DNA of 64,000 nucleotides from an uncultured Ignavibacteriales bacterium (GCA_964571235.1 CAZNAI010000004.1:233836-297835); one strand, 5' to 3'; positions 25,269-64,000 are shown, counted from the stretch's first letter. Numbers and translations: made by a program. The notes: generated by a model not told the origin, from the sequence alone.

Positions 25269-25279
25269 GCGCAAATGGG

Positions 25280-28027: not shown

Positions 28028-28037
28028 CGAGGAACAT

Positions 28038-29036
28038 ATGAAAAAAATTCTCATCACATTGATTATGCTACTCCCGGTCGCCGGGACCTACGCCGAGCAG
28101 ACCAAAGTCGGTTCGGCCGGAGCACAGTTTCTGAAAATCGGCGTTGGTTCGCGCTATCAGGCGCTTGGCGATGCCGGCGCGGCGACGGCCAACGATGTCT
28201 ACGCCATGTTCTGGAATCCGGCGGGACTAGTTGGGATCGAAGGAAACGCGATCAGTTTCACCAATGTCAATTATCTGCTCGATATCGATATGAACTATGT
28301 CGGCTATGCGAAAAACTTCGAGGGAATCGGCGTTTTCGGCGCTTCAGCCACCGTGCTCTCGATGGGTGAACAGAATATTTACACCTACGAAAATCAAGAA
28401 GGCAATGGCCAGCATTACACCGCCGGTTCGATGGCGATAGGTTTGTCGTTTGCCCGTCAAATGACTTCCACGTTTGCCTTTGGTGGCACGGTCAGATATG
28501 TCGGCGAACGGATTCACCTTGAGAAATCATCTGGGTTCGCCGTCGATTTCGGTACCATGCTCTGGACCGGGTTTAAGACCCTGCGCCTTGGGTTGGCGAT
28601 CACCAACATGGGCCCGCAACTGAAATTCAGCGGTCCGGATCTGACCGTCCCATACGACGAACAGGGTAATAGCGGATCGAACTACCCGATCGGTGCTTCT
28701 ATCGACGTGAACAAATACAACCTCCCGATGATGTTCCGTATGGGCATGGCGTATGATATGAGTGTCGGCTCTAAATCACTCGTGACGTTCGCGGCTGACC
28801 TTCGCAACCCTAACGACAATGTCCAGCAAGGGTCGCTCGGGGCTGAATTCGGATATAACGATCAGTTCTTTGTCCGGGGTGGATACAAGATAAACAGCAA
28901 GGAAGAGAAGATGTCGCTGGGCGCCGGGCTGAATACGGCCGTGACCAAAGACACGCGGTTGAGCATCGACTACGCCTGGCAGGACTTCGGGCGGCTGAAT
29001 TCGACTCAGCGTTTCTCCGTTGGCTTTACCTTCTAA
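28038..29036 (+). CDS. PorV/PorQ-family outer-membrane beta-barrel
   Basis: AQFLKIGVGSRYQALG, WNPAGL, DYAWQDFGRL..RFSVGFTF. Confidence 0.9.
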   Translation: MKKILITLIMLLPVAGTYAEQTKVGSAGAQFLKIGVGSRYQALGDAGAATANDVYAMFWNPAGLVGIEGNAISFTNVNYLLDIDMNYVGYAKNFEGIGVFGASATVLSMGEQNIYTYENQEGNGQHYTAGSMAIGLSFARQMTSTFAFGGTVRYVGERIHLEKSSGFAVDFGTMLWTGFKTLRLGLAITNMGPQLKFSGPDLTVPYDEQGNSGSNYPIGASIDVNKYNLPMMFRMGMAYDMSVGSKSLVTFAADLRNPNDNVQQGSLGAEFGYNDQFFVRGGYKINSKEEKMSLGAGLNTAVTKDTRLSIDYAWQDFGRLNSTQRFSVGFTF

Positions 29037-29052
29037 GATGGCCGATAGACTT

Positions 29053-29086
29053 AAAAAATCATGCCCCCCCTCGGGGCATTTTTTTT
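29053..29086 (+). terminator. Intrinsic terminator closing the TBDR-CTD protein-PorV operon
   Basis: ATGCCCC/GGGGCAT stem followed by a long T run, preceded by A6. Confidence 0.8.
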
Positions 29087-29164
29087 GGCGCCGGGTTTGT
29101 CCCGCTGGACTTTTGGTGTACAATGGGATATACTAAAGATTCACCCTCAACGAGCTATGGAAGT

Positions 29165-30754
29165 ATGAAGAGTATCCGACGCCTTGCTGTCACTGCCACC
29201 GTTGCCGTTCTTGTTCTTGGGTATACCCCCGTCCGATCGGCTGACGAATCCCCCCTTCAAGTAGTCCAAACCTACCTTGACTATGTTGCCAGCGGCAACT
29301 ATGAGTCGGCCATCGAACTCTGGAGCCCGGCCTCGGCCGCCCGAGCCAATCGGTTCGGGATCGAATTCCCCGAGTCGCCGATCCGCGCCGATGCCGCCTC
29401 GCCACTGGTGCGCCATGCCAACGAATTGTCGGGATACAATGTTCAGCCGGTCCAGAGTTTGCAAACAGTCGGACTGGACGCCACCTTTGTCAAGATGCTC
29501 TTCTCCGCGACGAAAGAGAAAACTTCGCTCCAACAGTGGTACTTCACCCGACACGAGGCCGAATGGTACTGGCTTTGTTATCCGCAGGACGCCATCGCAA
29601 AAGACTGGCCGGTGCAGGAGAGCAGATATTTCCGATTGCATGTCCACCCCTCGGTCGCCGATTTTGTCAGTGCACCGGCAATGGCCCAGTTCGACCACTT
29701 TGTCGAAGCGGTCGCCGATACCCTCGGGCTGACCCGCGCCGATATTGCCCTGATCGCTGACAAAAAAATAGAATATTTCTACTGCAACGATGACTCCACA
29801 GTGCTGTCGATTACCGGACAGTTTACCAAAGGGGTGCTCGATCAGTCGTCCAACGACATCATTTCGTCGAGCTTCCCGCATCACCACGAAGTCGTCCACT
29901 TACTTACAAACATAAAGCTCAAATCGCTCCCCCTGTATACTCTGCCCGTTGTTCGCGAAGGACTCGCGGTTAGGTTCGGCGGACGATGGGGGAAAGGCCC
30001 GGCCGCGCTTTTGGACCTCGGCGCTTTCCTAATTAGAGACACGCTGGTCTCGATAGACTCAAGTCTGGCAGTGCCAAATTTTGAGAATTCGTCGGAGATG
30101 GATCTTTTGTATCCGGTCTCGGGAGTAGTAGTTTCATATTTGTGGGACAAGCTGGGTAAACAGAAATTCTGGAGTTTGTATAGCTCAATGTCCGGCCCGC
30201 AGGATGTTATCAGCCGGCTTTCGACCGCTGAGGTCGGGGCCCGATTGGCCACCGCTCTTTCTCGCAAGAGCTGGGACGAAGTCAAAACAGGTCTTTCGGC
30301 GTATATGGCGCAAAATGTTGCAGGTTGGACAACCTCGAGCGCGGGCTCTTCACCCAAAGGAAAGCTGATCTGGAATAACCCCACCGATAGCGTGGTCATA
30401 GATGGCGACTGGATTTGCTTCTCTGTCAAAGCCGATTCCGGTGTCCTGGTCAAGGAGAGTTTTCTTCTGTTCAGAGACTCTACTTTTGCCGGTCATAAAT
30501 CGCTGTTGTTCGACGAACACTTTATGGGAGCAGTGCCGTTTGAGGGATTTCGGTACGGAGTCCGGATCGATCAAAACGAAGCCGGTGTGTACGACTATGC
30601 CGGCAACAACCTGATCTCCAAGTTTATCCTCGGTATCAACGGTGTAGACAATTATTACAACCCGAAGACCAACCGGGTCACAATAAAATTCAAGAAAAGC
30701 CTGTTCGGACCTATCACTCCAGCGGCGGCCGACATGGTGGCGGTTCCGTACTAA
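29165..30754 (+). CDS. Secreted gluzincin (peptidase MA-like) metallopeptidase
   Basis: Signal peptide; HEVVH and downstream REGLA; promoter TTGTCC-N16-TACAAT overlaps ATG 29123, so ATG 29165 is preferred. Confidence 0.7.
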   Translation: MKSIRRLAVTATVAVLVLGYTPVRSADESPLQVVQTYLDYVASGNYESAIELWSPASAARANRFGIEFPESPIRADAASPLVRHANELSGYNVQPVQSLQTVGLDATFVKMLFSATKEKTSLQQWYFTRHEAEWYWLCYPQDAIAKDWPVQESRYFRLHVHPSVADFVSAPAMAQFDHFVEAVADTLGLTRADIALIADKKIEYFYCNDDSTVLSITGQFTKGVLDQSSNDIISSSFPHHHEVVHLLTNIKLKSLPLYTLPVVREGLAVRFGGRWGKGPAALLDLGAFLIRDTLVSIDSSLAVPNFENSSEMDLLYPVSGVVVSYLWDKLGKQKFWSLYSSMSGPQDVISRLSTAEVGARLATALSRKSWDEVKTGLSAYMAQNVAGWTTSSAGSSPKGKLIWNNPTDSVVIDGDWICFSVKADSGVLVKESFLLFRDSTFAGHKSLLFDEHFMGAVPFEGFRYGVRIDQNEAGVYDYAGNNLISKFILGINGVDNYYNPKTNRVTIKFKKSLFGPITPAAADMVAVPY

Positions 30755-51432: not shown

Positions 51433-54375
51433 ATGTATAGTCCCTCACACAGACTCGTCATTGATGATCGGCTCCTAGCGATCGAAGAACTGGTTCGCCA
51501 GAAAAAGTTCGATCTGGCCCGGCGTGAATTGACATCTCTGGGCCCCGACCAGTTTTCGTCAGATTCTCCCGAACAAGGTATCTACTTGTCGCTTTCGGCT
51601 GACTGTGCCATTGAGGCGACTGATTACCGCAAAGCAATTGAATTTGGCTTGGTGGCCGCCCGCCTGCTCTCTGAGTTATCGTTGCATGCCAAATACGGCC
51701 GCACGATGCTCACTCTTTCGCGCTCCTACTCAGCGCTTGGTGATCTCAAAAATGCCGAAATTCGTGCGAATGACTCGCTCGCCACATACCGACGGGCCGG
51801 AGACACGAATGGTCAGGTTGACGCGCTTAACGAGCTTGCCCGCATTTCTTACATTCGGACAAATCTTTCTGCCGCCGCCGGGTACCTCTCGGATGCCGCG
51901 GCACTGGCCGTTGATAACCCACGCAAATCGGCTCTCTTGACCGGAAACCTTGGTCGCGTCCAGACGTTTGGCGGTCAATGGGTGCAGGCCGAACAGAATC
52001 TGGCAACCGCATTAGACCACAATCGGGCTCACCACTACGACACCTCTGTCGCAACAGACTTGGTTTCGCTGGCGCTCATTAGTATTCGAAAGCGTGATTT
52101 CCTCACCGCGGATCGTCAGTTGACCGAAGCGATGACGATTATCGATCGTCTCGGACTTAAACGCGACCGTATTATCGCCTCCGAGTTTATCGGGGAACTG
52201 GCCTTTGAGCGGGGCGACCTGTTCAAAGCGAAGTCGGTGTTAGCCGAGGCGTATCATCAGGCCCGGTTGCTTGCGCCGAATTCCGGATTGGTCTCGCAAG
52301 TGGCCCGTCGCATGGCTGAGGTCGAATTGTCGCTGGATCATGTCGAAGAGGCGGGGAAATTTGCCAATATTGCAATGGAAGTTGCCCAGGAGTTGGGAGA
52401 AAAGGCCGAAATGGCCCACGCCCGCCGGGTGATGGCCCGTGTGTTTTTGGCCAAGGGTGCGCTGGCCGACGCGCTCGATTGCGTGAGGCAGGCGGTTGAC
52501 CTGTTCCGCGAAGTTGGCGATCCGTTTGATTTGGCGAAGGGACTATTGGCCTTGGGCGAAATCAAGTCTCTTGGCAGTTCTGATGAAGCCGAGAAAATTC
52601 GCTCCGCTATTGACGAAGCCGGACGCATCTATAGAAAACTCCACTTGGAATATGGTGTCGCTTTGGCTGAATTCCGGGCCGGTGTGTTTGCCTGCCAAAA
52701 TGGCGACTTGTCGCGTGGATTTAGAAAACTAAGCCGGTCGGAAAAAACATTTCAGACCATTGGCGACACTGTCCGCGCCCGCGAAGTTCAACAGTTTCTC
52801 GGCTCTCTTTCGGATCAAGCGGTCGCGCTTTCGATTTCAGACAACAATCAATTCAAAGTCTTTGGCCGGCTTCTGTCCCAGTCTGAACTAAAAGACCTTA
52901 AGTCGGGCCAGATGGAAGAAGTCATGGGTGTGCTTGTCCGGCGGACCGGGGCCAACCGTGCGATTCTCTTTTCTCCTCAAATCGAAGACCGCCCGATCAT
53001 CAGTTCACAGACTCTGACAGCCGGCCAGACGCGCCGCTTTGTCGAGGGATTCAAGCGTATGATAGGCGCCGAGTTCGCCTCCGACCGGCCCTCGTTGCGC
53101 CTGGACTGCCGCCGTGATCCGTACATCCGCGAGCTCTTCGCCGATCAGCCGGAAGTAATCGCCAGCGTTATGGTCGTGCCGTTTGTGCAAAGCGACCAGA
53201 CCCAGAGTTATCTCTATCTGGACAAAATCTCGGAAGACAATCTGCTTAATCCGTTCGGACAGGATGAACTGAACTTCGTCGTCGGATTTTCTGATATCGT
53301 AGCCTTCAAAGTGGCCGAACTGCAAAAGCAAAAATTGCTTGAAGACAATCGTCGGCTCAAAGCGCAACTTCAGAAAGAAGCGGCCTTCCCCAATTTCATT
53401 ACCCGCAGTACCGCCATGATGGAAGTGCTCGGCCAAGTCAAGCAGGTAGTCGATTCGAATATTTCGATATCCATCGAAGGCGAGACCGGGTGTGGCAAAG
53501 ACCTGTTGGCTCGCGCCATTCACTACAACTCGGTCCGCAAGAATAAACGATTCATCTCGGTCAACTGTGCCGCTCTTCCGGAGACATTGCTCGAATCTGA
53601 GTTGTTCGGATATCGGAAAGGGACATTCACCGGCGCTGATCGGGACAAGCCGGGATTGTTTGAAGAAGCCGACGGCGGCACATTCTTCTTAGATGAAATC
53701 GCCGACATGCCGCTGAATATTCAGGCAAAGATTCTTCGCGTTCTTGAAGCAAAAGAACTTGTCCGGCTGGGTGAATCGATTCCGCGCAAGGTTGATGTCC
53801 GGATCGTTTCCGCCACCAACAAGGACCTAAAAGTTCAAATGGCCGCCGGACTGTTCCGTCAGGATCTGTACTACCGGCTTTCGGCTCTGACGTTTTATCT
53901 GCCGTCGCTTCGTGAACGACGCGAGGACATTCCTCTGTTAGCCGCCCATTTCTTGTCGGGAAGCGAAAAGCGCCTCTCGGCGGAGGCGATCAAAGCGCTG
54001 GTGTCTTATGAGTGGCCGGGGAATGTGCGCGAATTGGAAAACGAAATCAAGAAGTCGATTTTGCTGGTGGGCGACCGGAGTGAGATCGATCTCGACGTGT
54101 TGTCGTCAAAGATCGCCTCGCCGTATCTGGCTGAATATTCAGCGGATACCGTCGGTCATTCCGTTGCGGTTGCCGCTGACATGACGTTTTCGCGCCAGTA
54201 CTCGCTGTACGATTTTCTGGCCACCCACGAGCGGCAGTTCATCATCCGAGCGCTCAAAGAGAAGGGCGGCATCAAAAAGCACGCCGCCGCGGCCCTCAAT
54301 ATTCCCGAGTCGACTTTGCGTCTTAAGATCAAGCAATACAATATTGACTTGAATCATTTGGACGCGGTGAACTGA
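51433..54375 (+). CDS. sigma54-dependent activator: TPR repeats + GAF-like + AAA+ + Fis HTH
   Basis: GETGCGKD, NCAAL, ESELFG..GTFTGA, FLDEI, FRQDLYYRL, WPGNVREL, C-terminal HTH. Confidence 0.95.
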   Translation: MYSPSHRLVIDDRLLAIEELVRQKKFDLARRELTSLGPDQFSSDSPEQGIYLSLSADCAIEATDYRKAIEFGLVAARLLSELSLHAKYGRTMLTLSRSYSALGDLKNAEIRANDSLATYRRAGDTNGQVDALNELARISYIRTNLSAAAGYLSDAAALAVDNPRKSALLTGNLGRVQTFGGQWVQAEQNLATALDHNRAHHYDTSVATDLVSLALISIRKRDFLTADRQLTEAMTIIDRLGLKRDRIIASEFIGELAFERGDLFKAKSVLAEAYHQARLLAPNSGLVSQVARRMAEVELSLDHVEEAGKFANIAMEVAQELGEKAEMAHARRVMARVFLAKGALADALDCVRQAVDLFREVGDPFDLAKGLLALGEIKSLGSSDEAEKIRSAIDEAGRIYRKLHLEYGVALAEFRAGVFACQNGDLSRGFRKLSRSEKTFQTIGDTVRAREVQQFLGSLSDQAVALSISDNNQFKVFGRLLSQSELKDLKSGQMEEVMGVLVRRTGANRAILFSPQIEDRPIISSQTLTAGQTRRFVEGFKRMIGAEFASDRPSLRLDCRRDPYIRELFADQPEVIASVMVVPFVQSDQTQSYLYLDKISEDNLLNPFGQDELNFVVGFSDIVAFKVAELQKQKLLEDNRRLKAQLQKEAAFPNFITRSTAMMEVLGQVKQVVDSNISISIEGETGCGKDLLARAIHYNSVRKNKRFISVNCAALPETLLESELFGYRKGTFTGADRDKPGLFEEADGGTFFLDEIADMPLNIQAKILRVLEAKELVRLGESIPRKVDVRIVSATNKDLKVQMAAGLFRQDLYYRLSALTFYLPSLRERREDIPLLAAHFLSGSEKRLSAEAIKALVSYEWPGNVRELENEIKKSILLVGDRSEIDLDVLSSKIASPYLAEYSADTVGHSVAVAADMTFSRQYSLYDFLATHERQFIIRALKEKGGIKKHAAAALNIPESTLRLKIKQYNIDLNHLDAVN

Positions 54376-54429: not shown

Positions 54430-55245
54430 GTGAATCCGCCGCTCTATCTGCACCACTCCGCCGACCCGTATTTCAATATGGGGTTCGACGAATGGATGTT
54501 GCGGTGCGCGTCAAAATCTCCGGGTTCACTCATGTGGCGTTTGTATACGTGGCAAATCGGCACAATTACTTTTGGTTACAATCAGCGAAAAGAGACGGCG
54601 TTAGATTTTGAAAAGGCCGGCGATACTCCGGTCATTCGCAGAATAACCGGCGGTCGCGCGTTGTATCACGATATTTCCGAACTGACTTATTCCGTCGCTT
54701 ACAATTTGGCCGATCCGGGAACAGACCAGTTTCGGACCGGGCCGGCCAAGTCCTCCGAGGCAATCGCGATGATCCTGGCCAGATTTCTGGCCGCCCGCGG
54801 AGTCACCGCCACCTGGGAGCAATCGTCGGCACAGGAAAACTCCCGGCGCGATTTCTTTCATAAGGCCGCATGTTTTGCGTCGCACGCACGCCACGAACTT
54901 GTATCGGGCGGCGGGAAGATTGTCGCTTCAGCTCGCCGTGAATGGAACGGAGGCGTACTCCAACATGGCTCGATCAAACTGAACGGTCTGGTGGCGCATC
55001 CGGCTTTGCATTTTCAGCCGGACGCCCGCCCCGCCCCTGAGAAATCCGTTGCCCGATCAGAACTTAACGATTGCGCCATAGCGTTTGCGGACGCTGTCCG
55101 CGACACCATCGGGGTGAGTGTGCATGCCACTACCGATGACCTGCTTGACTCACCCGATATCGCATCGCGTACGCAATTTGTCAGGCAGTACCCATTTGAA
55201 AAGCGAGATTTGATTGCACACTCAGATACCATTGCGAGTCAATAG
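54430..55245 (+). CDS. Lipoate-protein ligase A / LipM-like family protein
   Basis: FNMGFDE, RLYTW..TITFGYNQ, RRITGGRALYH, KIVASA, LQHGSI. Confidence 0.88.
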   Translation: MNPPLYLHHSADPYFNMGFDEWMLRCASKSPGSLMWRLYTWQIGTITFGYNQRKETALDFEKAGDTPVIRRITGGRALYHDISELTYSVAYNLADPGTDQFRTGPAKSSEAIAMILARFLAARGVTATWEQSSAQENSRRDFFHKAACFASHARHELVSGGGKIVASARREWNGGVLQHGSIKLNGLVAHPALHFQPDARPAPEKSVARSELNDCAIAFADAVRDTIGVSVHATTDDLLDSPDIASRTQFVRQYPFEKRDLIAHSDTIASQ

Positions 55246-55288: not shown

Positions 55289-55318
55289 TTGACTTGCCCC
55301 CGTTCGGGCGGGTATTTT
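55289..55318 (+). promoter_or_regulatory. Candidate sigma70 promoter embedded in an inverted repeat, upstream of the second TBDR operon
   Basis: TTGACT-N18-TATTTT; flanked by AAAATACC/GGTATTTT. Confidence 0.4.
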
Positions 55319-55521: not shown

Positions 55522-58500
55522 ATGGAGATGATAGGTCGCAAACGTAATCTTCTGACAAGTGTCGCAATATTGCTCGCGCTTTTCCTGATAGATGTCGGGC
55601 CGGCGTTTGCCGGAGCGTACGGGCAGATCAAAGGAACGATCACCGACAAGGCGAACAAAGATCCGCTGGTCGGCGTGTCGATTCAGATTAAAGGGACGGC
55701 GGTCGGCGCCCTGACCGATATCGACGGTAACTTCGTTATTCAGCGCGTTGATCCCGGTACCTACGTACTGGTTATTTCCAGCGTTGGTTACGGCCGCATC
55801 GAAGTGACCGACATTGAGGTGCGCGCTGATTTGACCTCCGAAGTCAATCAGGCGCTGGAGCTGGCGGTATCTGATAAAGGCATCCAGACAGTTAAGGCCA
55901 AGCGCGACGTCATCAGTAAGTTCGAGGTCTCCGGCCAACTTTCCAAAACCGCCGAACAAATCAAGTCTCAGCCGGTGCAAAAAGTCGACGACATTCTCAA
56001 GGTCGTTCCCGGTGTAAAGACAACCCAGAGTGGCGATATTTTCATTCGCGGCGGCCGCGCCGGTGAAGTCGCGTACATTCTCGACGGCGTGCCGATCAAT
56101 GATCCTCTTGGTGGAACAGGTCAGACCGGTGCTAACCTGACCTTGGTGTCCGGTTCAATTCAGGAAATCCAGATCATCAAGGACGGTTTCGACCCGGAAT
56201 ACGGAAATGCCTTGTCGGGTATTGTCTCGATTCGTTCGCAGACTGGTAACAAAGAAAACACAAGGCTCAATCTGCGCTTCCTGACCGACGATTTTGGCAA
56301 CAAGTCGCTCAACAAGTATTCACGCAATAACGACAATTATAGAATTATCCTCTCCGGTCCCGATCCGATCCTGACCAGCCATATTCTCCCGGCGTTTGGT
56401 CTCAATTATCTCAAGGATAAAGAGTTTACGTACTATCTGTACTTCGAAGCGGATCAGAACGATGATTTCCAGCAGTTTTGGCGCTACGATACACCGTCGA
56501 CACGCCGGAATTACGGGTATTTCAATCTTTTGGGGATTCATGTCCCGGACCGTCTGAAGAATCAATACACCGTTCAGACTAACTTCCTGTTCCGTCCCAA
56601 ACAGAATATCCGCGCGGTATTCTCGTACAAGGGAACTGATTTTCGCTACAGCTCATTCGATTGGGAATATCGGTACACCTCAGCGACCATTCCGGTTCAG
56701 ACGCAGAAGCGCAACACCTATTCGATGGAGTGGACCCACGAGGTGAACAAGGATTTCCATTACGAAGCAATTTTCTCTGTCAACGCCCAGGAATACACCG
56801 TCAAGCCGGGTGATCCGGACCATCCGGGACTCGGACTTAACCCCGATCAGATTGCTCTTGAATCAGACTACGAAACGTACACCGATCGGAACGACAACGG
56901 AAAGTATGACGCCCCCGAACCGATCATTAATATCTTTCCGGATTCACTCTCTTACGGTACCGACTATAACGGCCCCGCCTACACTTTCGGTGAATTCAAC
57001 ACGACTCTTGGCAATCAGCAGGGTGGTGGCAACGGCTTCCCAACTGACTTCCGGTTTAATCGCAATGGCGTACCGGACTCGCTTGAGGGCGAGGCCTTTG
57101 TTGACATGAATGGCAACGGCGTGTGGGATCGCGGCGATGATTTGCAGGACAAAAACGGCAATGGCAAGCTTGATGCCGATCGGATTTCCACTATTGATAC
57201 CAAGAATCCGGAACCGTATGTCGACGGCGACTCGGTCATCGGCGAGCCGTTTACCGACCTAAACGCGAACGGGCGGTATGACGAGGGAGTCGATGGATTT
57301 GTCATTTCGGTAAATGCCACCATCAACCAGGATCTAAATCACAATGGAAAGTACGACGGTCCGTTGACCTTCTGGACGCCCGGCATTCCGTACTACGATC
57401 GAAACGGCAACGGGCTTTTTGATCGGGCCAACGGTCAGTTCGACCCGGGCGAGTTGTACAATGATATAAACGGCAACGGGAAATGGGATTATGGCGGTAC
57501 CGGGACATTTCTTAATCCAGGTCAACATAACGAGGACATGAGGTGGCATCGCCGCGCCACAACCACCTACCGCGCCGAAGTAAAGGGATTCCGTCAGGCG
57601 GGACACCACGAACTAAAAGTAGGTTTGGCGATTCAGCGCGACAATCTCGAATTTGAGGAAATCTTAAGGCCGTACATTCCGTACATTGGTCGACCCGACG
57701 GCGGACCGTATCAGGATCGCGGAGCTTTCAGGGACTTCTTTAAGTTCAAACCGGTTTCAGGAACCGTTTATTTCCGCGACAAAATCGAGTACGGATCAAT
57801 GATTGCCTCGCTTGGCGTGCGGTGGGATTACTTCTTGCAGGATACCAAAGATCTTGAGAAAACCCTGATCAGCGACGACCGGGGCGGTACGATTTTCGGC
57901 GATCGACAGAAGATTTCGCCGCGTATCGGCTTCTCGTACCCGATCTCAGACAAAGCCAAGGTGTATTTCAACTACGGACACTTCTTCCAACAGCCGCAGT
58001 TGCTTTACATGTACCAGCGCAATACGTCCTCGGCCGACCAGAACGCGGTTCTGGGCAACCCGAACTTGGACTATCAAAAGACGATTCAGTATTCCTTCGG
58101 CGTGAAGTACGCGATGAGCGAAACGTACTCGGTTGATTTCCAGGGGTACTTCAAGGACGAGTTCGACAAGATTAATAGCACCAAGATTAAAGAAGAGAGC
58201 GGCATTTTCATCCAGCGCTACCGGAACTCCGACTACGGCCGGAGCCGCGGATTGGAAGTAACAGTTGAAAAGCGCGGAAGCGGGTATGTGAATGGTTCGC
58301 TGAGTTATACCTACGCTTTTGCCAATGGAAAGGCGTCGCAAACAAACGCGAACTACCTGTCTGATTTCCTTCTGTCGCGCGAGCCGCTTTCTGAAGCGCC
58401 GCTTGATAACGATATCCGGCATTCGCTCCAGTCTGAGCTTCAAATCGTGATCCCGAACAACGTCAAGCCGAGGCTTTTCGGTATCCGCGTAATCAACGGC

Positions 58501-58869
58501 TGGTCGCTTTCGATTGCAACAGTGATTGAATCAGGGAGACCGTTTACACCGACCAAAACATTCCCGAATCTGGCAACGTCAGGGCTTGAAGACATCGAAA
58601 CGAATTCACTCCGGTACCCGGCGACTGCCTATTTCAATGTTCGGTTCCAAAAGGACTTCCGTTTGGCCGGAGCCGATTGGAGCCTCAATTTCTGGGTGGA
58701 TAATGTCTTTGATGCCCGGAATGTCGAAACGCTGTACGCGAATACGGGTAGACCGGACACCGATCAGAATATTTCCAATCAGGTCTTGGGTGGCACCGAG
58801 TTCAACCAGAACCCGGCAAATTGGAACTTTGGGCGTCAGGTGAAACTCGGCCTCGAAATGAACCTGTAA
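55522..58869 (+). CDS. TonB-dependent receptor with a large insertion of DxNxNG Ca-binding-type repeats
   Basis: GQIKGTI..PLVGVSI; plug IFIRGGRAGEVAYILDG; NPNLDYQKTIQY; C-term LGLEMNL. Confidence 0.92.
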   Translation: MEMIGRKRNLLTSVAILLALFLIDVGPAFAGAYGQIKGTITDKANKDPLVGVSIQIKGTAVGALTDIDGNFVIQRVDPGTYVLVISSVGYGRIEVTDIEVRADLTSEVNQALELAVSDKGIQTVKAKRDVISKFEVSGQLSKTAEQIKSQPVQKVDDILKVVPGVKTTQSGDIFIRGGRAGEVAYILDGVPINDPLGGTGQTGANLTLVSGSIQEIQIIKDGFDPEYGNALSGIVSIRSQTGNKENTRLNLRFLTDDFGNKSLNKYSRNNDNYRIILSGPDPILTSHILPAFGLNYLKDKEFTYYLYFEADQNDDFQQFWRYDTPSTRRNYGYFNLLGIHVPDRLKNQYTVQTNFLFRPKQNIRAVFSYKGTDFRYSSFDWEYRYTSATIPVQTQKRNTYSMEWTHEVNKDFHYEAIFSVNAQEYTVKPGDPDHPGLGLNPDQIALESDYETYTDRNDNGKYDAPEPIINIFPDSLSYGTDYNGPAYTFGEFNTTLGNQQGGGNGFPTDFRFNRNGVPDSLEGEAFVDMNGNGVWDRGDDLQDKNGNGKLDADRISTIDTKNPEPYVDGDSVIGEPFTDLNANGRYDEGVDGFVISVNATINQDLNHNGKYDGPLTFWTPGIPYYDRNGNGLFDRANGQFDPGELYNDINGNGKWDYGGTGTFLNPGQHNEDMRWHRRATTTYRAEVKGFRQAGHHELKVGLAIQRDNLEFEEILRPYIPYIGRPDGGPYQDRGAFRDFFKFKPVSGTVYFRDKIEYGSMIASLGVRWDYFLQDTKDLEKTLISDDRGGTIFGDRQKISPRIGFSYPISDKAKVYFNYGHFFQQPQLLYMYQRNTSSADQNAVLGNPNLDYQKTIQYSFGVKYAMSETYSVDFQGYFKDEFDKINSTKIKEESGIFIQRYRNSDYGRSRGLEVTVEKRGSGYVNGSLSYTYAFANGKASQTNANYLSDFLLSREPLSEAPLDNDIRHSLQSELQIVIPNNVKPRLFGIRVINGWSLSIATVIESGRPFTPTKTFPNLATSGLEDIETNSLRYPATAYFNVRFQKDFRLAGADWSLNFWVDNVFDARNVETLYANTGRPDTDQNISNQVLGGTEFNQNPANWNFGRQVKLGLEMNL

Positions 58870-58915
58870 CGCATTTGCTTTTGAGATGTTACGTTTGAGA
58901 ATAGATGAGGATACA

Positions 58916-59902
58916 ATGCAGAATCATACTCGCGGTCCGATCAGCTTCGTGAAAGCGCATCGTTCCGTTATCGGGATGCTGTTGCTGTTGCCGGCGCTCA
59001 CTGGCGTGGCCTTCGGTCAGGCGAAAGTCGGAACGACCGGTGCGCAGTTCCTTGAGATAGGAGTTTCGGCCAGAGCAATGGGAATGGCCGAGGCCTATAC
59101 GGCCGTCGTAAACGACGTCTCTTCCATTTACTACAACCCGGCCGGACTCACTTCGCTCTTGGGCAAGGAATTCATGACCTCGTACATTCAGATGCCCGCC
59201 GATGTGCAGTACGGATTTGTCGGGGTAGGCATTCCGCTCGAATCGATCGGCGGTGTGCTCGGCATCGGCGCCAACTACCTGACCTCCGGTGGAATCAAGG
59301 AAACCGACTACAACTACGGCGTGATTGGCGGCGGATTGAATGGCACCGGCCGGACCTTTTATGCCGATCATCTGGCGCTTTCGGCCGCCTATGGCCGGTA
59401 TTTGACCGATCGGTTTTCAGTCGGTGTGACCATGCGGTATATCGGAATGTGGTATCACGACTTCACCGCCAACGGTTGGGCGGCGGATGTCGGCACCATG
59501 TACGACAGCGGCTACCGAGGATTTAAGCTGGCTATGGTGATTACCAATTTCGGACCCGACGTCAAGTTTATTCAGAAGGCGGCACCGCTTCCAATCAACT
59601 TCAAGTTCGGCGGCGCTTTCAATCTCCTGGAAAAAGGAGATCACTATCTGACGTTTGCCGCCGACGGATCGCACCCGTCGGATAATCTTGAGAAGTATAA
59701 TGCCGGGCTGGAGTATACGTTTAAGGACCGCCTTATCATCAGAGCAGGCGAGCGCCTTAATTACGACTTGGATGGACTTACTTTCGGCGCCGGTTTCCGC
59801 CTGCCGTTTGCACAACAGGGCGAACTCAAATTTGACTATGCGTACCAGGATTTTGGGATTCTGACTGAAGTCCACCGGTTCACGCTCGGTGTTTCGTTCT
59901 AA
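58916..59902 (+). CDS. PorV/PorQ-family outer-membrane beta-barrel
   Basis: AQFLEIGVSARAMGM, YYNPAGL, DYAYQDFG..HRFTLGVSF. Confidence 0.9.
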   Translation: MQNHTRGPISFVKAHRSVIGMLLLLPALTGVAFGQAKVGTTGAQFLEIGVSARAMGMAEAYTAVVNDVSSIYYNPAGLTSLLGKEFMTSYIQMPADVQYGFVGVGIPLESIGGVLGIGANYLTSGGIKETDYNYGVIGGGLNGTGRTFYADHLALSAAYGRYLTDRFSVGVTMRYIGMWYHDFTANGWAADVGTMYDSGYRGFKLAMVITNFGPDVKFIQKAAPLPINFKFGGAFNLLEKGDHYLTFAADGSHPSDNLEKYNAGLEYTFKDRLIIRAGERLNYDLDGLTFGAGFRLPFAQQGELKFDYAYQDFGILTEVHRFTLGVSF

Positions 59903-59922
59903 TGGAAGGAATCAGGAAGACA

Positions 59923-62115
59923 ATGAATACATTTGCTTTTAGCCGGCGCAATTTTCGCCTGGCGGCCTTTGGCGCCGTCGCGGCTGGAACGCTGTTGTCG
60001 GTAATAGCCGGTGGATGTAAAAAAGTCGAAGGCACCAGAGTCGACAACCAAGCCCCGCTTGTCTGGTTTGCCAACGTCCCGCCGCAAGATCAGCAATTTT
60101 CCACCAATCCGTTGGTTCACTGGGTCGGTCAGGATCGCGACGGCCAGGTTGTGAGGTTCAGGTATCGCGTCATCAGGCAAACCACCATGATGGCCGCGAT
60201 CGGACGCGACAGCACGATCGGGTTGCCGCCGGGTGAACCTGATCCTTCGTACTTGGCAGAGTACATCGCTTATGTCACGAGTACTGCGCCGGACTCAGTT
60301 TGGAAATACTTGACGGTTGACCCGCAGAACGGTCAACCGCAGACCGGCGTGGTTGTCCCACTGGTTGCTGAATTATCAGATCCGGTGCGAGTGTTTGTGC
60401 CGCAATATGTGTTTGTTCAGGCGATTGATGACCGGGGAATGATGTCGGGCGTCGCCTATCGCCGATTTGTCCGTAATAATAATCCGCCTAATACCCGCAT
60501 ACTTGGTTTTGATTCGACCCTAACGCCGTTTATTGATGCCGTAGTACCGGGTGGAATAGCCACCGGTATCCGGTTGATGTGGGCCGGCTACGATATCTTG
60601 GATTATCCGACCGAACCGCCGCCGTTTGAATTCCAGTGGCGTCTGTACGGACCATTTGATTCCGCGACATTTGCCACCATGGAGCAGAAGTTCAAGCGCG
60701 AAGTGTACGTTACCAATGATGCACGGACGTTTGTTATCCATCCGAACGGTTTGGAAACCTACGCCGATACGCTCGAGTTCTGCGACACGGCGTACTATCC
60801 CGAGGGCGTATTTGTGCAGTGCGACACGATCGTCGTTGATACAATCACTGTCGCCAATCTTTACGGGCATCTTGACACGCTTTTCAATGTTGAAGATCCG
60901 GAGTTTGTTAGCGATACATCGTACAACCTGATCGCCGACAGCTCCAAGAACGGGGTTACCGGCTGGATCACAAATCTTCGGGATTCGATTTACGACGTTT
61001 TCCGGGCACGGCCGAGCGCGAATACCCAGCAGGGTAGGTTCCTATTCTGGGCCAGAGCGCGTGATGATGCCCGAGGACCGGATGTCGCTCCCGCCTTCGT
61101 TTCGTTCTTGGTTGTGGCGCCAAAATACGAACACACCATGTTGGTAGCCGATGCGATGATTTCATACGAAATCAATCCAAGGAATTTCATTAAGGCCAGG
61201 AAATACTGGGATTCAACTTTCCATTCCTGGCGACCGGCTGACACCGATTTTGACACCCTACGAGACTACCACATCGTCAGCCAAAGCTCAGGTAACGTCC
61301 TGCCGCTTTCGCTACTCCTTAGTCACAAGATTGTTGTCATAGTGTGCGACGACGTGATTAAGGGCGTGTTTAACACACCTGATATCCGCAAGAGGGTGTT
61401 TACCGCTCTGGATGCCGGCGTGAGCGTCTGGATGTGCGGGCGTTCAATGATTGCCGGCGATGAGGCCAAGCCGCCGGAATACATGACTCCGTTGTCCGGC
61501 AATTGGCCGAGAGACGACCGGAATTTCAGTCGCGATTATACCTATTACTTCGGGTCGGAAGCGTATCAGCATTCCGGTTGGAGTTGGTTCTGGATAATCA
61601 AGGAACCGTCCCAGCGAGTTGAGGATTTCATCGGCACGTCGTCGCTTAACACCACGCTGTGGCCCGATATTTCGGTCGATACCGCCCGGCTCCGAAGTTA
61701 TTACGGATGGGGGGGCGACTATTTCCCGCCCTTCCGGCCCGATCTCGGGGCGTTACCAGAAGTTGGCTACATGATCAGTAGTTTCGGCACCGAGGTTATG
61801 CACCTGTATCGATCAAAGTTCGGCAGTCAATTGTTACCGGAGCCGATAGGTAAGAGTTTCGACGGCCGCCCGGTTATGCATCGACTCAATCGCGGGGTGT
61901 TCCGATCGGTAGTGTCGCTCTTCACTCCGTATGCAATGACTGATACGTCGGAAGTGGACGGTGTTGGCAAGACCGTCAAGAACACGCTCGATTGGATGTA
62001 TTTCCCGTTTGAATCGGGGGCCGCTCCCGGAACGGCTGAGTTCTACTTCCCACAAGGTAGCGGAACAGTCAGCCAATCGACAGCGCGGGCTATTCACTTT
62101 CAGCCGGTTGAGTAG
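59923..62115 (+). CDS. Hypothetical lipoprotein, beta-rich
   Basis: Lipobox-like IAGG-C after hydrophobic stretch; HWVGQDRDGQV..FRY, NNPPNT.I, FWARARD patterns. Confidence 0.75.
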   Translation: MNTFAFSRRNFRLAAFGAVAAGTLLSVIAGGCKKVEGTRVDNQAPLVWFANVPPQDQQFSTNPLVHWVGQDRDGQVVRFRYRVIRQTTMMAAIGRDSTIGLPPGEPDPSYLAEYIAYVTSTAPDSVWKYLTVDPQNGQPQTGVVVPLVAELSDPVRVFVPQYVFVQAIDDRGMMSGVAYRRFVRNNNPPNTRILGFDSTLTPFIDAVVPGGIATGIRLMWAGYDILDYPTEPPPFEFQWRLYGPFDSATFATMEQKFKREVYVTNDARTFVIHPNGLETYADTLEFCDTAYYPEGVFVQCDTIVVDTITVANLYGHLDTLFNVEDPEFVSDTSYNLIADSSKNGVTGWITNLRDSIYDVFRARPSANTQQGRFLFWARARDDARGPDVAPAFVSFLVVAPKYEHTMLVADAMISYEINPRNFIKARKYWDSTFHSWRPADTDFDTLRDYHIVSQSSGNVLPLSLLLSHKIVVIVCDDVIKGVFNTPDIRKRVFTALDAGVSVWMCGRSMIAGDEAKPPEYMTPLSGNWPRDDRNFSRDYTYYFGSEAYQHSGWSWFWIIKEPSQRVEDFIGTSSLNTTLWPDISVDTARLRSYYGWGGDYFPPFRPDLGALPEVGYMISSFGTEVMHLYRSKFGSQLLPEPIGKSFDGRPVMHRLNRGVFRSVVSLFTPYAMTDTSEVDGVGKTVKNTLDWMYFPFESGAAPGTAEFYFPQGSGTVSQSTARAIHFQPVE

Positions 62116-62168: not shown

Positions 62169-62201
62169 AAGGGATCGGCCCAAGGGCCGGTCCCTTTCTT
62201 T
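62169..62201. terminator. Bidirectional terminator between convergent genes
   Basis: AAGGGATCGGCC-CAAG-GGCCGGTCCCTT followed by a T-rich tract. Confidence 0.75.
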
Positions 62202-64000
62202 ATAACAGAGCTAATCGTTGAGCAAGAGCCATGAAGATCGGGTCGCCCGGCAAGAGGCGGGTGGCTTCTTTTAGATACCGGCGGGCACGATCCACATTGC
62301 CAAGTTGTACTTCTGCGGAGATGAGATTCACCCAGGCGCCAGCAAGGGTTGAGTCAATCGCAATCGCTGACAAACTGAAGATGGCGGCCTGCGTATAGGT
62401 ACCCTGTTTTCCGAATATAGCGCCAAGACTCATGTTCGCCAGCGCACGGCGGTGGGTGTCGCGCTCTTTGGCGCTCCAGTAGGTTTGAGTAAACATGCGG
62501 TCGTCGGTTTCAAGCGGAGGCGCCTCGGACTTGGTCATAACGCGATACAGGTCGACTGCATCGCTTGAATTGCCGGCGGTCTCAAGGGCAGTCGCTCCCT
62601 CAAAGCAAACATCGATATTGTCGCGGGTTGCGGCCATTCCCGCCCTGCAGACGCGGGCAAGCGAATCAGTTGTCACGCCAGAACGGGCCGTAGACCGAAT
62701 CAGTACCAGCCACCCGGACGGCTCGTACGGGCGACGCTCAATTGCCATTCGGGCAAAGCCGGCGGCTGAATCGTATTTCTGTTGAACCAGCCGGAGTGCG
62801 CCCAGGTTTGCGTAGGCAAGCGGACGATCAGGATGATTGGAAATTTCCTTGCGAAAATGCCATTCGGCCGAGTCGGCGTTTGCCAGTCTCAGATGAGCCG
62901 CACCCAGATTGAGATGTATCTCTGGGGCCAAGCTATCGATTGCCCAGGCGTTTCGGTAGTGCACCAATGAACCGGCAAAATCGCCGTTGTTGTATAACAA
63001 GAGGCCTTTGGAGGTTTCGTCCTGCGACATGTGCTGATACTGGAAGAAAAGACTCGGCAGAAATGTAACGGCCGTGCCGATCACCAAAGTCGGCCAGAGG
63101 TTGCGATGCCGCAGTTTTTCTCTCCAGTGCATCGTCAGGTCGTCAAGCCATGCCGCCGCGAGAATGAAATAGGCCGGCAAGAGAGTCAGCCGAAAACGAC
63201 TGTTGACAAAAAAGAGGGCGTTGACGAGCGTGAAACCAACGACCACTGCAATGATCCAGCGCATCTGTACCGACCCACCCCACCGGGTAACCAATCCCAG
63301 CGTGGCCAGGACGAAGATCACTCCAAATCCGAGTGGAACGTATCGCACAATTGACACCTGGGAAATCAACGCCAACTGGCTTCGATTGTTGTCGATTTCA
63401 ATGTTAGCAAAAGAAAACCAGATTCGCTTGAGCGTGAGGATGGCGAAATCTACCGGATTGTGTACGATCCAATCAATGCCACGGCCAAACCAATACTTCG
63501 ATATTTCGCCCGGTTTGAGTTGCCGTCCTGTTCCTTTTTCTGCGATGTACCTTACATCGGCAGTTCGCCAGTTGTGGCCGAGCGGCTGGGGGAGAACCGC
63601 ATGGAGGCCGTCGGATCCCTCATTGTTTCCGATGTAGAAGTTTATCCCTCCCTGCGAGGCGATCAGAACCGGATCGCCGGCTACCGCTACGTTTCGAGCA
63701 AAGACAACTCCGATCGGGATCGCCATCCCGATGAGCAAAACGAGCGCCGGCCGAAGCATCTGTCGTGCGGGTCGACGCAGTTGCCAGACTACTCCCAGCG
63801 TCACCAGCGGCGCCAGAGCGAGTATGGTCGGTCGTGTGATAGCGGCCAACCCAAACAAAAACGACGCGAGAAACAAAAACCGGTGGGTCTTTCGATCGGA
63901 CCAGATCAAAAACGCATATCCCGAAGCCTGCACTATCAACATGAAGAGGGGATCCAAAAGTAGTTCTGCTTCAAGTGTGACGAGCATTGGATAGATACAC
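62200..64000 (-). CDS. GT-C (PMT/ArnT-like) membrane glycosyltransferase with C-terminal TPRs; 5' end outside the window
   Basis: GLAAITRP, SQGGINFYIGN, RFRL motifs; many TM helices; TPRs; frame stays open to the window edge. Confidence 0.8.
   Translation of the reverse strand, partial: CIYPMLVTLEAELLLDPLFMLIVQASGYAFLIWSDRKTHRFLFLASFLFGLAAITRPTILALAPLVTLGVVWQLRRPARQMLRPALVLLIGMAIPIGVVFARNVAVAGDPVLIASQGGINFYIGNNEGSDGLHAVLPQPLGHNWRTADVRYIAEKGTGRQLKPGEISKYWFGRGIDWIVHNPVDFAILTLKRIWFSFANIEIDNNRSQLALISQVSIVRYVPLGFGVIFVLATLGLVTRWGGSVQMRWIIAVVVGFTLVNALFFVNSRFRLTLLPAYFILAAAWLDDLTMHWREKLRHRNLWPTLVIGTAVTFLPSLFFQYQHMSQDETSKGLLLYNNGDFAGSLVHYRNAWAIDSLAPEIHLNLGAAHLRLANADSAEWHFRKEISNHPDRPLAYANLGALRLVQQKYDSAAGFARMAIERRPYEPSGWLVLIRSTARSGVTTDSLARVCRAGMAATRDNIDVCFEGATALETAGNSSDAVDLYRVMTKSEAPPLETDDRMFTQTYWSAKERDTHRRALANMSLGAIFGKQGTYTQAAIFSLSAIAIDSTLAGAWVNLISAEVQLGNVDRARRYLKEATRLLPGDPIFMALAQRLALL

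Follow-up and report, generated by a model that had tools for sequence, protein, structure and literature searches.

The locus considered here poses the question of why genes for a TonB-dependent receptor (TB2), a barrel of the PorV/PorQ family (PorV2) and a lipoprotein (LP2) are tightly packed together at positions 55522-62115 of the window, by which we mean the whole 64,000-nucleotide stretch of DNA that was analysed. An earlier note on this DNA described these three open reading frames, all of which are present where it had placed them, and proposed that the receptor and the barrel constitute a conserved core while their partner is exchangeable, with a lipoprotein here taking the place of a protein that carries a C-terminal sorting domain (CTD). 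The likely start of PorV2 is the ATG at 58916, with GAGGA located 5-6 nt ahead of it, and that of LP2 is at 59923 behind AGGAAG, which gives the 730-aa length reported earlier. With these preferred starts, the intergenic gaps are 46 nt between TB2 and PorV2 and 20 nt between PorV2 and LP2. A strong terminator-like hairpin forms the end of the operon between the convergent LP2 and glycosyltransferase genes (Table 1). At the other end there is a weak candidate sigma70-like promoter that is not significant by itself because the region holds 6 such sites versus 6.3 expected, and a search for a conserved sigma54 promoter upstream of TB2 in 55 loci found none. As judged from gene order and sequence, the trio is a real three-gene outer-membrane operon of a Zixibacteria genome and has been kept across the whole phylum.

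Table 1. Coordinates of the genes and sequence features discussed in the text, counted from the first nucleotide of the window.
Feature	Position	Strand	Basis or remark
Module 1: TB1 (22575-25268), 915-aa giant (25280-28027), PorV1 (28038-29036)	22575-29036	+	Paralogous to the TB2/PorV2 locus
Sigma54-dependent activator (TPR + AAA+ + HTH_8)	51433-54375	+	Pfam Sigma54_activat, 223.8 bits
LplA/LipB-like lipoate-ligase-family gene	54430-55245	+	Pfam LplA-B_cat, 70.1 bits
Candidate sigma70-like promoter (weak)	55289-55318	+	TTGACT-18-TATTTT, 9/12 matches; in the 276-nt gap 5' of TB2
TB2, TonB-dependent receptor of Oar/SusC-type architecture	55522-58869	+	PF13715, PF13620, PF07715 and PF00593 above cut-off
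TB2-specific insertion, about 235 aa, seven DxNxNGxxD loops	56809-57516	+	Without counterpart in TB1 and TB3
PorV2, 14-strand-type FadL/PorV/PorQ-family outer-membrane barrel	58916-59902	+	NF033709; longest ORF from 58886
LP2, 730-aa lipoprotein	59923-62115	+	Lipobox, AF2 model; longest ORF from 59902
Lipobox cysteine codon of LP2	60016-60018	+	C39 of the long ORF = C32 of the 730-aa protein
Terminator-like hairpin (strong, intrinsic)	62169-62196	+	12-bp stem with 8 GC pairs, then a T-rich tail
GT-C (PMT_2) + TPR membrane glycosyltransferase, convergent, cut by the window end	62200-64000	-	Pfam PMT_2 + TPR

Conservation of this arrangement is nearly complete. The LP2 family occurs in 199 of 201 Zixibacteriota genomes (179 of the 180 of high quality), a barrel gene lies directly upstream of LP2 in 71 of the 73 loci with room upstream, and a TB2-type receptor is found upstream in 66 of 68. 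Within the taxonomic order of the window the trio belongs to a near-invariant block of eight genes comprising the sigma54 activator, the LplA-like gene, TB2, PorV2, LP2, the convergent GT-C/TPR gene and the genes for an S8 and an M6 protease. The sigma54 activator is often present upstream, being syntenic in most loci of this order, but its presence is not obligatory. The immediate upstream neighbour is the LplA-like gene, which adjoins TB2 in nearly every locus, distant families included, and probably has its own terminator, given a terminator-like hairpin at 55299-55312. The GT-C/TPR protein, 725 aa in full when read from the genome, is syntenic in nearly all loci. The two proteases, also in conserved synteny, are encoded 2-3 kb downstream and have Por_Secre_tail-like ends typical of type IX secretion (T9SS).

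The window contains a paralogous module (module 1) that lies 32.9 kb upstream of the TB2 module and in which a large protein with a CTD-like tail, hereafter called a giant, is encoded between receptor and barrel, an order (TB1-giant-PorV1) also kept in 17 relatives; a third module (TB3, PorV3) is located on contig C1. Paralogy of PorV2 and PorV1 is far above chance (E = 1.6e-30), and the three receptors retrieve one another in iterative searches with E-values of 1e-244 or lower. The receptor tree, (TB2,(TB1,TB3)), and the barrel tree, (PorV2,(PorV1,PorV3)), have the same topology, and the receptor-linked barrels form a clade of their own (SH-aLRT 92) apart from the other approximately eight PorV/PorQ paralogues. 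Since the two trees mirror each other, receptor and barrel were duplicated together as pairs. The proposed comparison of PorV paralogues with their adjacent receptors thus comes out in agreement, and the pair is indeed a co-inherited, conserved core.

The proposed exchange of partners fares differently. Among 23 informative loci of other Zixibacteria families (f5-f18), 21 have an orthologous operon of four genes, TB2, giant, PorV2 and LP2, in which the giant is a protein of about 850-900 aa with a CTD-like tail and the giant-PorV2 pair sometimes occurs twice. LP2 therefore coexists with the giant and is not a substitute for it. Nowhere in the order of the window does the operon include a giant. 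On the rooted TB2 tree this giant-less state is confined to one derived clade (support 97) and one single genome, requiring two changes, which argues for loss. Because the TB2 tree has a polytomy at its base, the choice of loss over gain leans on parsimony and on the outgroup modules TB1 and TB3, both of which also carry giants. By this reasoning the giant gene has been lost from the operon in the clade of the window, and LP2 is an ancestral fourth component.

Giants have not disappeared from the genome of the window, which at other loci encodes five giants of a sister clade that have the same tail and no adjacent barrel. The in-operon giants are sister (support 100) to these dispersed ones, and both share the tail WDLI(T/S)RNTQ..VSG.Y...VE...IGK.VII(K/M). 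Matches of the tails of giants to T9SS CTD models are all sub-threshold (E = 0.013-0.09), with 20 bits for the module 1 giant (cut-off 23) and 16.2 and 13.5 bits for in-operon giants of relatives (cut-off 27), and the same search gave no match in the giant paralogue at C4:644070 of the window's genome. LP2 and the giants are further linked by LP2 paralogues (LP2b) that form tandems with clade-B giants, both at C1:67018-71327 and in other genomes; these tandems have neither a receptor nor a barrel close by.

These observations bear on the exchangeable-partner reading, in which a lipid-anchored protein replaces a CTD-anchored one and PorV2 works independently of CTDs, for example by holding LP2 via its extracellular loops. 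There is a precedent in the Bacteroidota BAM complex, where BamG, a FadL-like barrel with 14 strands, uses its extracellular loops to bind the surface lipoprotein BamH and the paralogous BamG2-BamH2 pair forms an operon (PMC12578637). Consistent with this reading, PorV2 remains 60-70% identical across its best 120 homologues even though the order of the window lacks an in-operon giant, PorV2 and LP2 are coupled at 20 nt, and TB2, PorV2 and LP2 show the tightest three-way covariation of branch rates in the block (rho 0.46-0.54, a modest excess over other block pairs, which reach up to 0.62). However, the co-occurrence of LP2 with a giant described above speaks against it, as do the position of LP2, which is always 3' of the barrel and never between receptor and barrel, the rejection of LP2 as a homologue of the giants (hhalign probability 1.4%), the same-tail giants encoded in trans, and the lack of a match of PorV2 to the BamG model NF053685 at E <= 0.01. 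The locus also differs from that of BamG-BamH in that no BamA is encoded nearby and the partner is a TonB-dependent receptor. We judge this reading to be unlikely. The corollary that PorV must act beyond the holding of CTDs loses its necessity, given that same-tail giants and tailed proteases exist, while such a role is possible.

The identification of LP2 as a lipoprotein, in contrast, is borne out. Its N-terminus has the Sec/SPII pattern of a basic region, a hydrophobic stretch and a lipobox (..LLSVIAGG-C-KKVEG). At least 90% of 31 homologues share the cysteine, which directly follows an invariant glycine (G31). Orthologues of 14 further families have this cysteine too, making it conserved phylum-wide, and the gene is tightly coupled to that of the barrel. 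LP2 has no sequence match in Pfam, NCBIfam or PDB. In its AF2 model (mean pLDDT 81.5) the signal peptide with the lipobox is accompanied by two regions of beta-sandwich fold (Ig/FN3-like), an alpha/beta domain similar to GATase1/ThuA and a tail that is disordered. In structure comparisons the beta-sandwich regions match FN3/Ig tandems only, and the C-terminal domain (pLDDT 87.1) weakly matches GATase1/ThuA-like folds (TM 0.4-0.5, E about 1e-3). A catalytic class I glutamine amidotransferase, which would need a Cys-His-Glu triad, was rejected as the domain's invariant columns include no Cys or His, and a SusD/RagB-like lid, which would have an all-alpha TPR-like fold, was rejected given the modelled folds and the lack of a SusD Pfam match. 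No C-terminal sorting domain (TIGR04183 / PF18962) was found on LP2, the last approximately 35 residues of which are modelled at low confidence or disordered. The acidic lipoprotein export signal of the Bacteroidota type is absent, and LP2 may face the periplasm rather than be on the surface.

PorV2 matches the NCBIfam PorV_fam model NF033709 over its entire length (residues 50-338, profile positions 1-326 of 326) with 198.9 bits (cut-off 90) and has the motifs AQFLEIGV..R, NPAGL and YAYQDFG; its nearest database homologue (328 aa) is 98% identical. It scores below the cut-offs of both equivalog models, with 65 versus 250 bits for PorV (NF033710; PorV1 reaches 98.8) and 101.8 versus 220 bits for PorQ, and by these scores is a specialised paralogue of the family. 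Unlike PorV proper, it does not adjoin porU. The PorU sortase gene is at C7:202789-206646 (653 bits, cut-off 420) and is adjoined by another PorV-family gene (C7:206666-209287) that has the best PorV equivalog score of the genome (148.3 bits) and is probably the canonical PorV. PorV2 might instead function as a genuine FadL-type channel through which a hydrophobic compound passes, with a receptor and a lipoprotein that are unrelated to it and just happen to be in the operon; the LplA-like neighbour would then hint at lipoate- or octanoate-type substrates. Pfam does give PorV2 and PorV1 a Toluene_X/FadL match, albeit below threshold, orthologues are called 'long-subunit fatty acid transport protein' in some sources, and the LplA-like gene is kept beside TB2 phylum-wide, but that gene seems to end at its own hairpin, the barrels have been co-duplicated with receptors and in most lineages each lies directly 3' of a tailed giant, and the tandem (giant-PorV2) x2 duplications favour a pairing of giant and barrel. 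A channel function of this kind is consequently very improbable.

TB2 is a protein of 1115 aa, the sequence of which contains IRGGRAGEVAYILDG, with a signal peptide followed by a CarboxypepD_reg N-terminal extension, a plug and a 22-strand-type barrel. Its plug (PF07715, 48.8 bits, cut-off 23.9) and barrel (PF00593, 72.9 bits, cut-off 27) identify it as a TonB-dependent transporter, orthologues of which are 57-60% identical across the family. A TonB-box-like GIQTVKAK lies between extension and plug and is, as judged by eye, alignable in all TB1, TB2 and TB3 orthologues, and a profile search found TonB_C domains above cut-off at 10 places in the genome. Both TB2 (49.2 bits) and TB1 (82.9 bits) are below the cut-off of 368 for the SusC/RagA model TIGR04056. 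The DxNxNGxxD loops number 4 to 8 in each of the TB2 orthologues that were examined, whether or not the operon includes a giant; they look like calcium-binding sites, with both calcium binding and its sidedness putative.

Myxococcus xanthus Oar has a domain architecture identical to that of TB2, namely a CarboxypepD_reg N-terminal extension, a plug with a TonB box (a TonB-box-like motif in TB2) and a barrel, and is linked to a secreted protease (PMC6434023). TB2 could by analogy work outward, in the way that Oar acts on the protease PopC, moving or displaying giants, LP2 or the neighbouring proteases, with PorV2 as the receiving socket. The secreted proteases kept in the neighbourhood and the single-copy, phylum-wide conservation, which suits a housekeeping machine, fit with export, whereas import-type SusC/RagA receptors have the same architecture and the genome already has a complete-looking T9SS for tailed cargo. 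Oar also differs from TB2 in acting alone, without a PorV-like barrel or lipoprotein partner, and in lacking the loop insertion. We therefore regard export as quite unlikely.

The reading that we prefer, at a probability of roughly 0.55, is that the operon was trimmed down from an ancient outer-membrane module of four genes that belongs to the core of the phylum, and that it specifies a SusD-independent surface capture and import complex. Gene content, conservation, receptor-barrel co-duplication, the direction of change and the LP2 domain folds are established by the analysis, and from them we infer the mechanism. The ancestral module would have comprised TB2, a secreted giant with a variant T9SS-CTD-like tail, a dedicated PorV2 and LP2. 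The ancestor of the order that includes the window would have dropped the giant gene from this operon, with TB2-PorV2-LP2 staying together and sister-clade giants encoded elsewhere. PorV2 would be a membrane socket that holds surface proteins beside the transporter via their uncleaved tails, much as Porphyromonas gingivalis PorU and PorZ are surface-anchored through PorV and PorQ (PMC5562754), and it might also contact LP2 in the manner of BamG with BamH. The module resembles this T9SS attachment complex in that a PorV/PorQ-family barrel gene is beside that of a large CTD-like-tailed protein, and differs in that a TonB-dependent receptor and a lipoprotein go with the barrel and that no sortase or LPS-delivery domain is present. 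LP2, anchored by its lipid, would serve as an accessory or binding subunit and work together with giants, and TB2 would import the captured product using TonB energy. The genome has the machinery that such a complex requires, as it encodes an SprA-like translocon, the PorU sortase and several TonB_C proteins. Points against this reading are the sub-threshold CTD matches of the giants' tails, the possible periplasmic location of LP2 and the modest margin of the rate covariation.

SusC/SusD and RagA/RagB of Bacteroidota, including 'utilisomes' with extra surface lipoproteins, are like the TB2 locus in combining a CarboxypepD_reg receptor with surface accessory proteins beside secreted hydrolases. 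RagAB is an importer of peptides, in keeping with the S8 and M6 neighbours of TB2, and these adjacent T9SS-tailed proteases suggest that the substrate is peptides or protein fragments. The TB2 locus is nevertheless unlike these systems in having no SusD/RagB-type protein, LP2 being composed of Ig-like regions and a GATase1-like domain; in having a barrel of the PorV/PorQ family as part of the unit, joined ancestrally by a T9SS-tailed giant; and in being single-copy and phylum-wide while SusCD/RagAB loci are variable. Another system in which a TonB-dependent transporter has a substrate-binding partner other than SusD and lies beside secreted hydrolases is the Bacteroidales DdbC/DdbD DNA-utilisation system (bioRxiv 10.1101/2025.03.18.642099), which differs from the TB2 locus in that the partner is a DUF5689 protein, there is no PorV-like barrel and the substrate is DNA.

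Universal single-copy conservation is odd for a substrate-specific uptake locus, and the complex could have a housekeeping role. More tentatively, PorV/PorQ-family barrels outside Bacteroidota may be general membrane sockets on which feeding complexes of several proteins are built around TonB-dependent transporters, with the Zixibacteriota complex of Ca-loop transporter, tailed giant, socket and lipoprotein as a core, phylum-wide organelle of the outer membrane. If so, the socket in the lineage of the window would work either with giants that are provided in trans or with the lipoprotein directly, and TonB-dependent uptake would have a fourth architecture in addition to the stand-alone, SusCD-type and DdbCD-type ones.

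The three open reading frames of the operon lie on the same strand and encode a TonB-dependent receptor (TB2), a PorV/PorQ-family barrel (PorV2) and a lipoprotein (LP2), and the receptor and PorV motifs quoted in the earlier note are present in TB2 and PorV2. Ribosome-binding-site-like sequences favor 58916 as the start of PorV2 and 59923 as that of LP2, which gives intergenic gaps of 46 and 20 nt and an LP2 of 730 aa, the same length as that note gave. The operon ends in a 12-bp GC-rich hairpin followed by a T tail. Control of the operon by sigma54 was considered and rejected, as a conserved GG-N10-GC promoter is absent upstream of TB2 across 55 loci; the sequence TGGCTGATCGCTCGC of the window, picked by eye as a sigma54-like candidate, is without counterpart in the other loci. 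Directly upstream of TB2 there is an LplA/LipB-family gene in almost all Zixibacteria loci examined, distant families included. Just past the window end lie two proteases with tails of the T9SS type, an S8 subtilase of 1050 aa and an InhA-like M6 metalloprotease of 941 aa. These two downstream proteases are kept phylum-wide, and both have Por_Secre_tail-like ends.

For analysis of relatives, open reading frames came from a simple longest-ORF script and were labeled by phmmer or tblastn against the proteins of the window, and trees were built with the quick mode of IQ-TREE. In a phylum-wide sample of 201 genomes, a profile search found the LP2 family in 199, and the same profile matched 698 representatives of 50%-identity clusters in a library of 1.84 billion proteins. 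Among the matches listed, lengths range from 220 to 870 aa (full-length members ~600-870 aa) and none is giant-sized, where "giant" denotes the ~850-900-aa secreted protein with a CTD-like tail that is found in the orthologous operon of other families. Across 80 named loci, a barrel is immediately upstream of the LP2-type gene in 71 of the 73 with upstream room, and 66 of 68 include a TB2-type receptor; the two LP2-type genes that depart from this pattern are extra copies, the canonical locus being present in their genomes as well. Within the taxonomic order of the source genome the block is near-invariant, comprising (sigma54 activator), LplA-like, TB2, PorV2, LP2, convergent GT-C/TPR, and the S8 and M6 proteases. 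Tree lengths of 12.6 for PorV2, 12.6 for TB2 and 25.5 for LP2 indicate that receptor and barrel evolve at about half the rate of LP2. In branch-rate covariation among seven block proteins, TB2, PorV2 and LP2 constitute the tightest triple (0.46-0.54), with other pairs reaching up to 0.62 over an inflated baseline, and we regard the covariation of the trio as weak evidence.

Outside of the window's order, loci from families f5, f6, f7, f9, f10, f11, f12, f14, f15, f17 and f18 present a different layout, with 21 of the 23 informative loci having the gene order TB2, giant (~820-1020 aa), PorV2, LP2. The earlier note had proposed that receptor and PorV form a core with an exchangeable partner, the lipoprotein being an alternative to a CTD protein. 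The exchangeable partner is not supported, since LP2 coexists with the giant in these 21 loci and the two are not homologous (a domain-shuffled partner was rejected at an hhalign probability of 1.4%). As judged from sequence, LP2 is a predicted conserved fourth subunit and not a lipid-anchored stand-in for a tailed partner. Loci without a giant are restricted to the window's order plus family f8, which together form one clade (support 97), and to one f7 genome. A TB2 tree rooted with the receptors of the other two modules, TB1 and TB3, contains two changes of giant state, with the base of the TB2 clade unresolved. These two changes, together with the presence of giants in both outgroup modules, make loss of the giant the parsimonious reading, under which the window's operon would be a trimmed version of an ancestral module. 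A tempting idea is thereby corrected: lipid anchors and T9SS tails do not appear to be interchangeable in the TB2 system.

In families f5, f15 and f18 there are two or three giants and two barrels per locus. Loci L157, L158, L161 and L162 from these families have the giant-PorV2 pair in tandem, giving the order TB2, giant, PorV2, giant, PorV2, LP2. Such tandem duplications inside the operon argue for a one-to-one pairing of giant and barrel. The in-operon giants end in ..WDLISRNTQAV.SGIYLYRV....G.QVGKIVIIK, which matches the T9SS tail model below threshold.

The three receptor-linked barrels form one clade (SH-aLRT 92), separate from the other paralogues, with the topology (PorV2,(PorV1,PorV3)), and the receptors have the topology (TB2,(TB1,TB3)) with support of 92. 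These matching topologies indicate that receptor-barrel pairs were duplicated as units, and the co-divergence of PorV paralogues with adjacent receptors that the earlier note had put up for testing is borne out by the mirrored trees. Module 1 (TB1, giant, PorV1; 22575-30754 in this comparison) is conserved like module 2, with neighbors unchanged in 17 relatives. Downstream of it, the relatives have a ~530-590-aa open reading frame that is the positional counterpart of a 543-aa Peptidase_MA-like one in the window, whose Pfam score is sub-threshold (21.8 bits versus a cut-off of 32.4).

Coordinates of the features discussed (C1, C3, C4, C5 and C7 are contigs of the same genome)
Feature	Location	Remark
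TB2-PorV2-LP2 operon	window 55522-62115
Operon-end hairpin and T tail	window 62169-62196
LplA/LipB-family gene	window 54430-55245
S8 and M6 proteases	C4:298234-304292
Module 1	window 22575-29036	TB1, giant with CTD-like tail, PorV1
Module 3	C1	TB3-giant-PorV3
Dispersed B-type giants	C4:644070-652164; C5:152160; C3:881787	three in tandem; one; one
Tandem giants with neighboring genes	C4:644070-658243
porU and following PorV-family gene	C7:202789-209287
Dockerin-like-repeat loci	C1:67018-71327; C1:60836-62752; C1:64977-66941; C3:126733-131224; C3:218134-224970
TB2 insertion, ~235 aa	window 56809-57516	seven DxNxNGxxD loops; absent from TB1 and TB3
LP2 beta-sandwich regions	residues ~46-200 and ~216-400	AF2 model
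LP2 alpha/beta domain	residues ~404-695	AF2 model

Dispersed paralogues in the window genome form the sister clade (support 100) of the in-operon giants, the two together being termed B-type as distinct from the A-type giants of modules 1 and 3. Five dispersed giants have a tail identical in kind to that of the in-operon giants, and none of the five has an adjacent barrel. The three in tandem lie beside two unlabeled open reading frames (711 and 505 aa) and a gene for a TonB-dependent receptor of 733 aa, a region in which a PorV-like barrel is absent. Some members of the same clade have dockerin-like repeats in place of the tail and are always in tandem with an LP2 paralogue, LP2b, that lacks the lipobox and first domain and begins with dockerin-like repeats. 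Thus, the LP2 family and B-type giants travel together in two genomic contexts. The repeats, (N/D)xDGxxxIDIxDLTxLIDYL(Y/F)(V/I)S, define a secreted, often Cys-rich family in which they are C-terminal, or N-terminal in LP2b; a Pfam search with them gave no match. They may represent a second surface-sorting or scaffolding tag beside the T9SS tail.

The genome (3.17 Mb), whose LP2 and PorV2 homologues carry the names candidate division Zixibacteria or Zixibacteriota, encodes an SprA-like translocon, several TonB C-terminal domains and a PorU sortase (653 bits versus a cut-off of 420), the C-terminal tail region of which matches ~39 further places in the genome. The NCBIfam PorV/PorQ family model aligns with PorV2 over its full length (198.9 bits; cut-off 90). 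On the equivalog models PorV2 scores 65 against a cut-off of 250 for PorV and 101.8 against 220 for PorQ, and neither cut-off is reached by any of the ~14 PorV/FadL-like paralogues in the genome. The highest PorV equivalog score, 148.3 bits, belongs to the gene directly following porU, by this measure the strongest candidate for PorV in the genome. A ~540-aa insertion interrupts the barrel of its product between residues 23-67 (first strand region) and 607-871. PorV2 is therefore best described as a family member and not as the canonical shuttle.

TB2 (1115 aa) contains CarboxypepD_reg, Plug and TonB_dep_Rec barrel domains, each above its Pfam cut-off. Its insertion is present in every orthologue examined, with 4-8 DxNxNGxxD loops each, irrespective of whether the operon has a giant, and both calcium binding by these loops and their sidedness are putative. 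LP2 begins with a basic stretch, a hydrophobic stretch and ..VIAGG-C. At least 90% of 31 homologues retain the lipobox cysteine, the glycine preceding it is invariant, and a lipobox also occurs in orthologues from 14 further families, so the earlier prediction of a lipoprotein stands. LP2 has no sequence matches in Pfam, NCBIfam or PDB, and a profile search of PDB gave TRPV1 matches only (E ~0.02), which were rejected as spurious. An AF2 model (mean pLDDT 81.5) consists of a signal helix, two beta-sandwich regions, an alpha/beta domain and a disordered tail. The full-length fold matches only FN3/Ig tandems, those from a viral library being generic and uninformative, while the C-terminal domain modeled alone (pLDDT 87.1) weakly resembles a GATase1/ThuA-like fold (TM 0.4-0.5). 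Its invariant columns include no Cys or His, which makes a catalytic amidotransferase unlikely. A GATase1-like domain common to LP2 and the neighboring M6 protease, suspected by eye, was rejected (hhalign probability 0.7%).

By analogy with PorV-PorU and PorQ-PorZ anchoring (PMC5562754) and with SusCD/RagAB and DdbCD-type transporters (bioRxiv 10.1101/2025.03.18.642099), surface proteins held by a socket barrel and a lipid anchor would capture substrate, and TB2 would import the captured material, with peptides suggested as substrate by the protease neighbors. Direct contact between PorV2 and LP2 of the BamG-BamH type (PMC12578637) is possible. It is also possible that TB2 has an Oar-like role in export (PMC6434023), as its architecture is of the Oar subclass; import of captured material is the role that the transporter analogies suggest. 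The earlier note had argued that, if the partner has no CTD, PorV must have a role independent of CTDs; this does not follow, as there are five candidate tail-bearing clients in trans and two tailed proteases kept nearby.

The literature searched contains nothing combining Zixibacteria with type IX secretion, and a link between a PorV-like barrel and a TonB-dependent receptor appears nowhere beyond a passing remark in a BAM paper. The locus supplies cognate and non-cognate sets, with PorV1, PorV2 and PorV3 set against A-type and B-type tails. It also presents a natural experiment in which one lineage is without the in-operon giant and receptor, barrel and lipoprotein are still strongly conserved, separating the components that have to be encoded as a unit from the one that other places in the genome can provide. 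Zixibacteria are widespread in soils and sediments and are uncultured, and we know of no experimental work on their envelope. A single-copy outer-membrane module that occurs in ~99% of their genomes is likely to be central to how these organisms feed.
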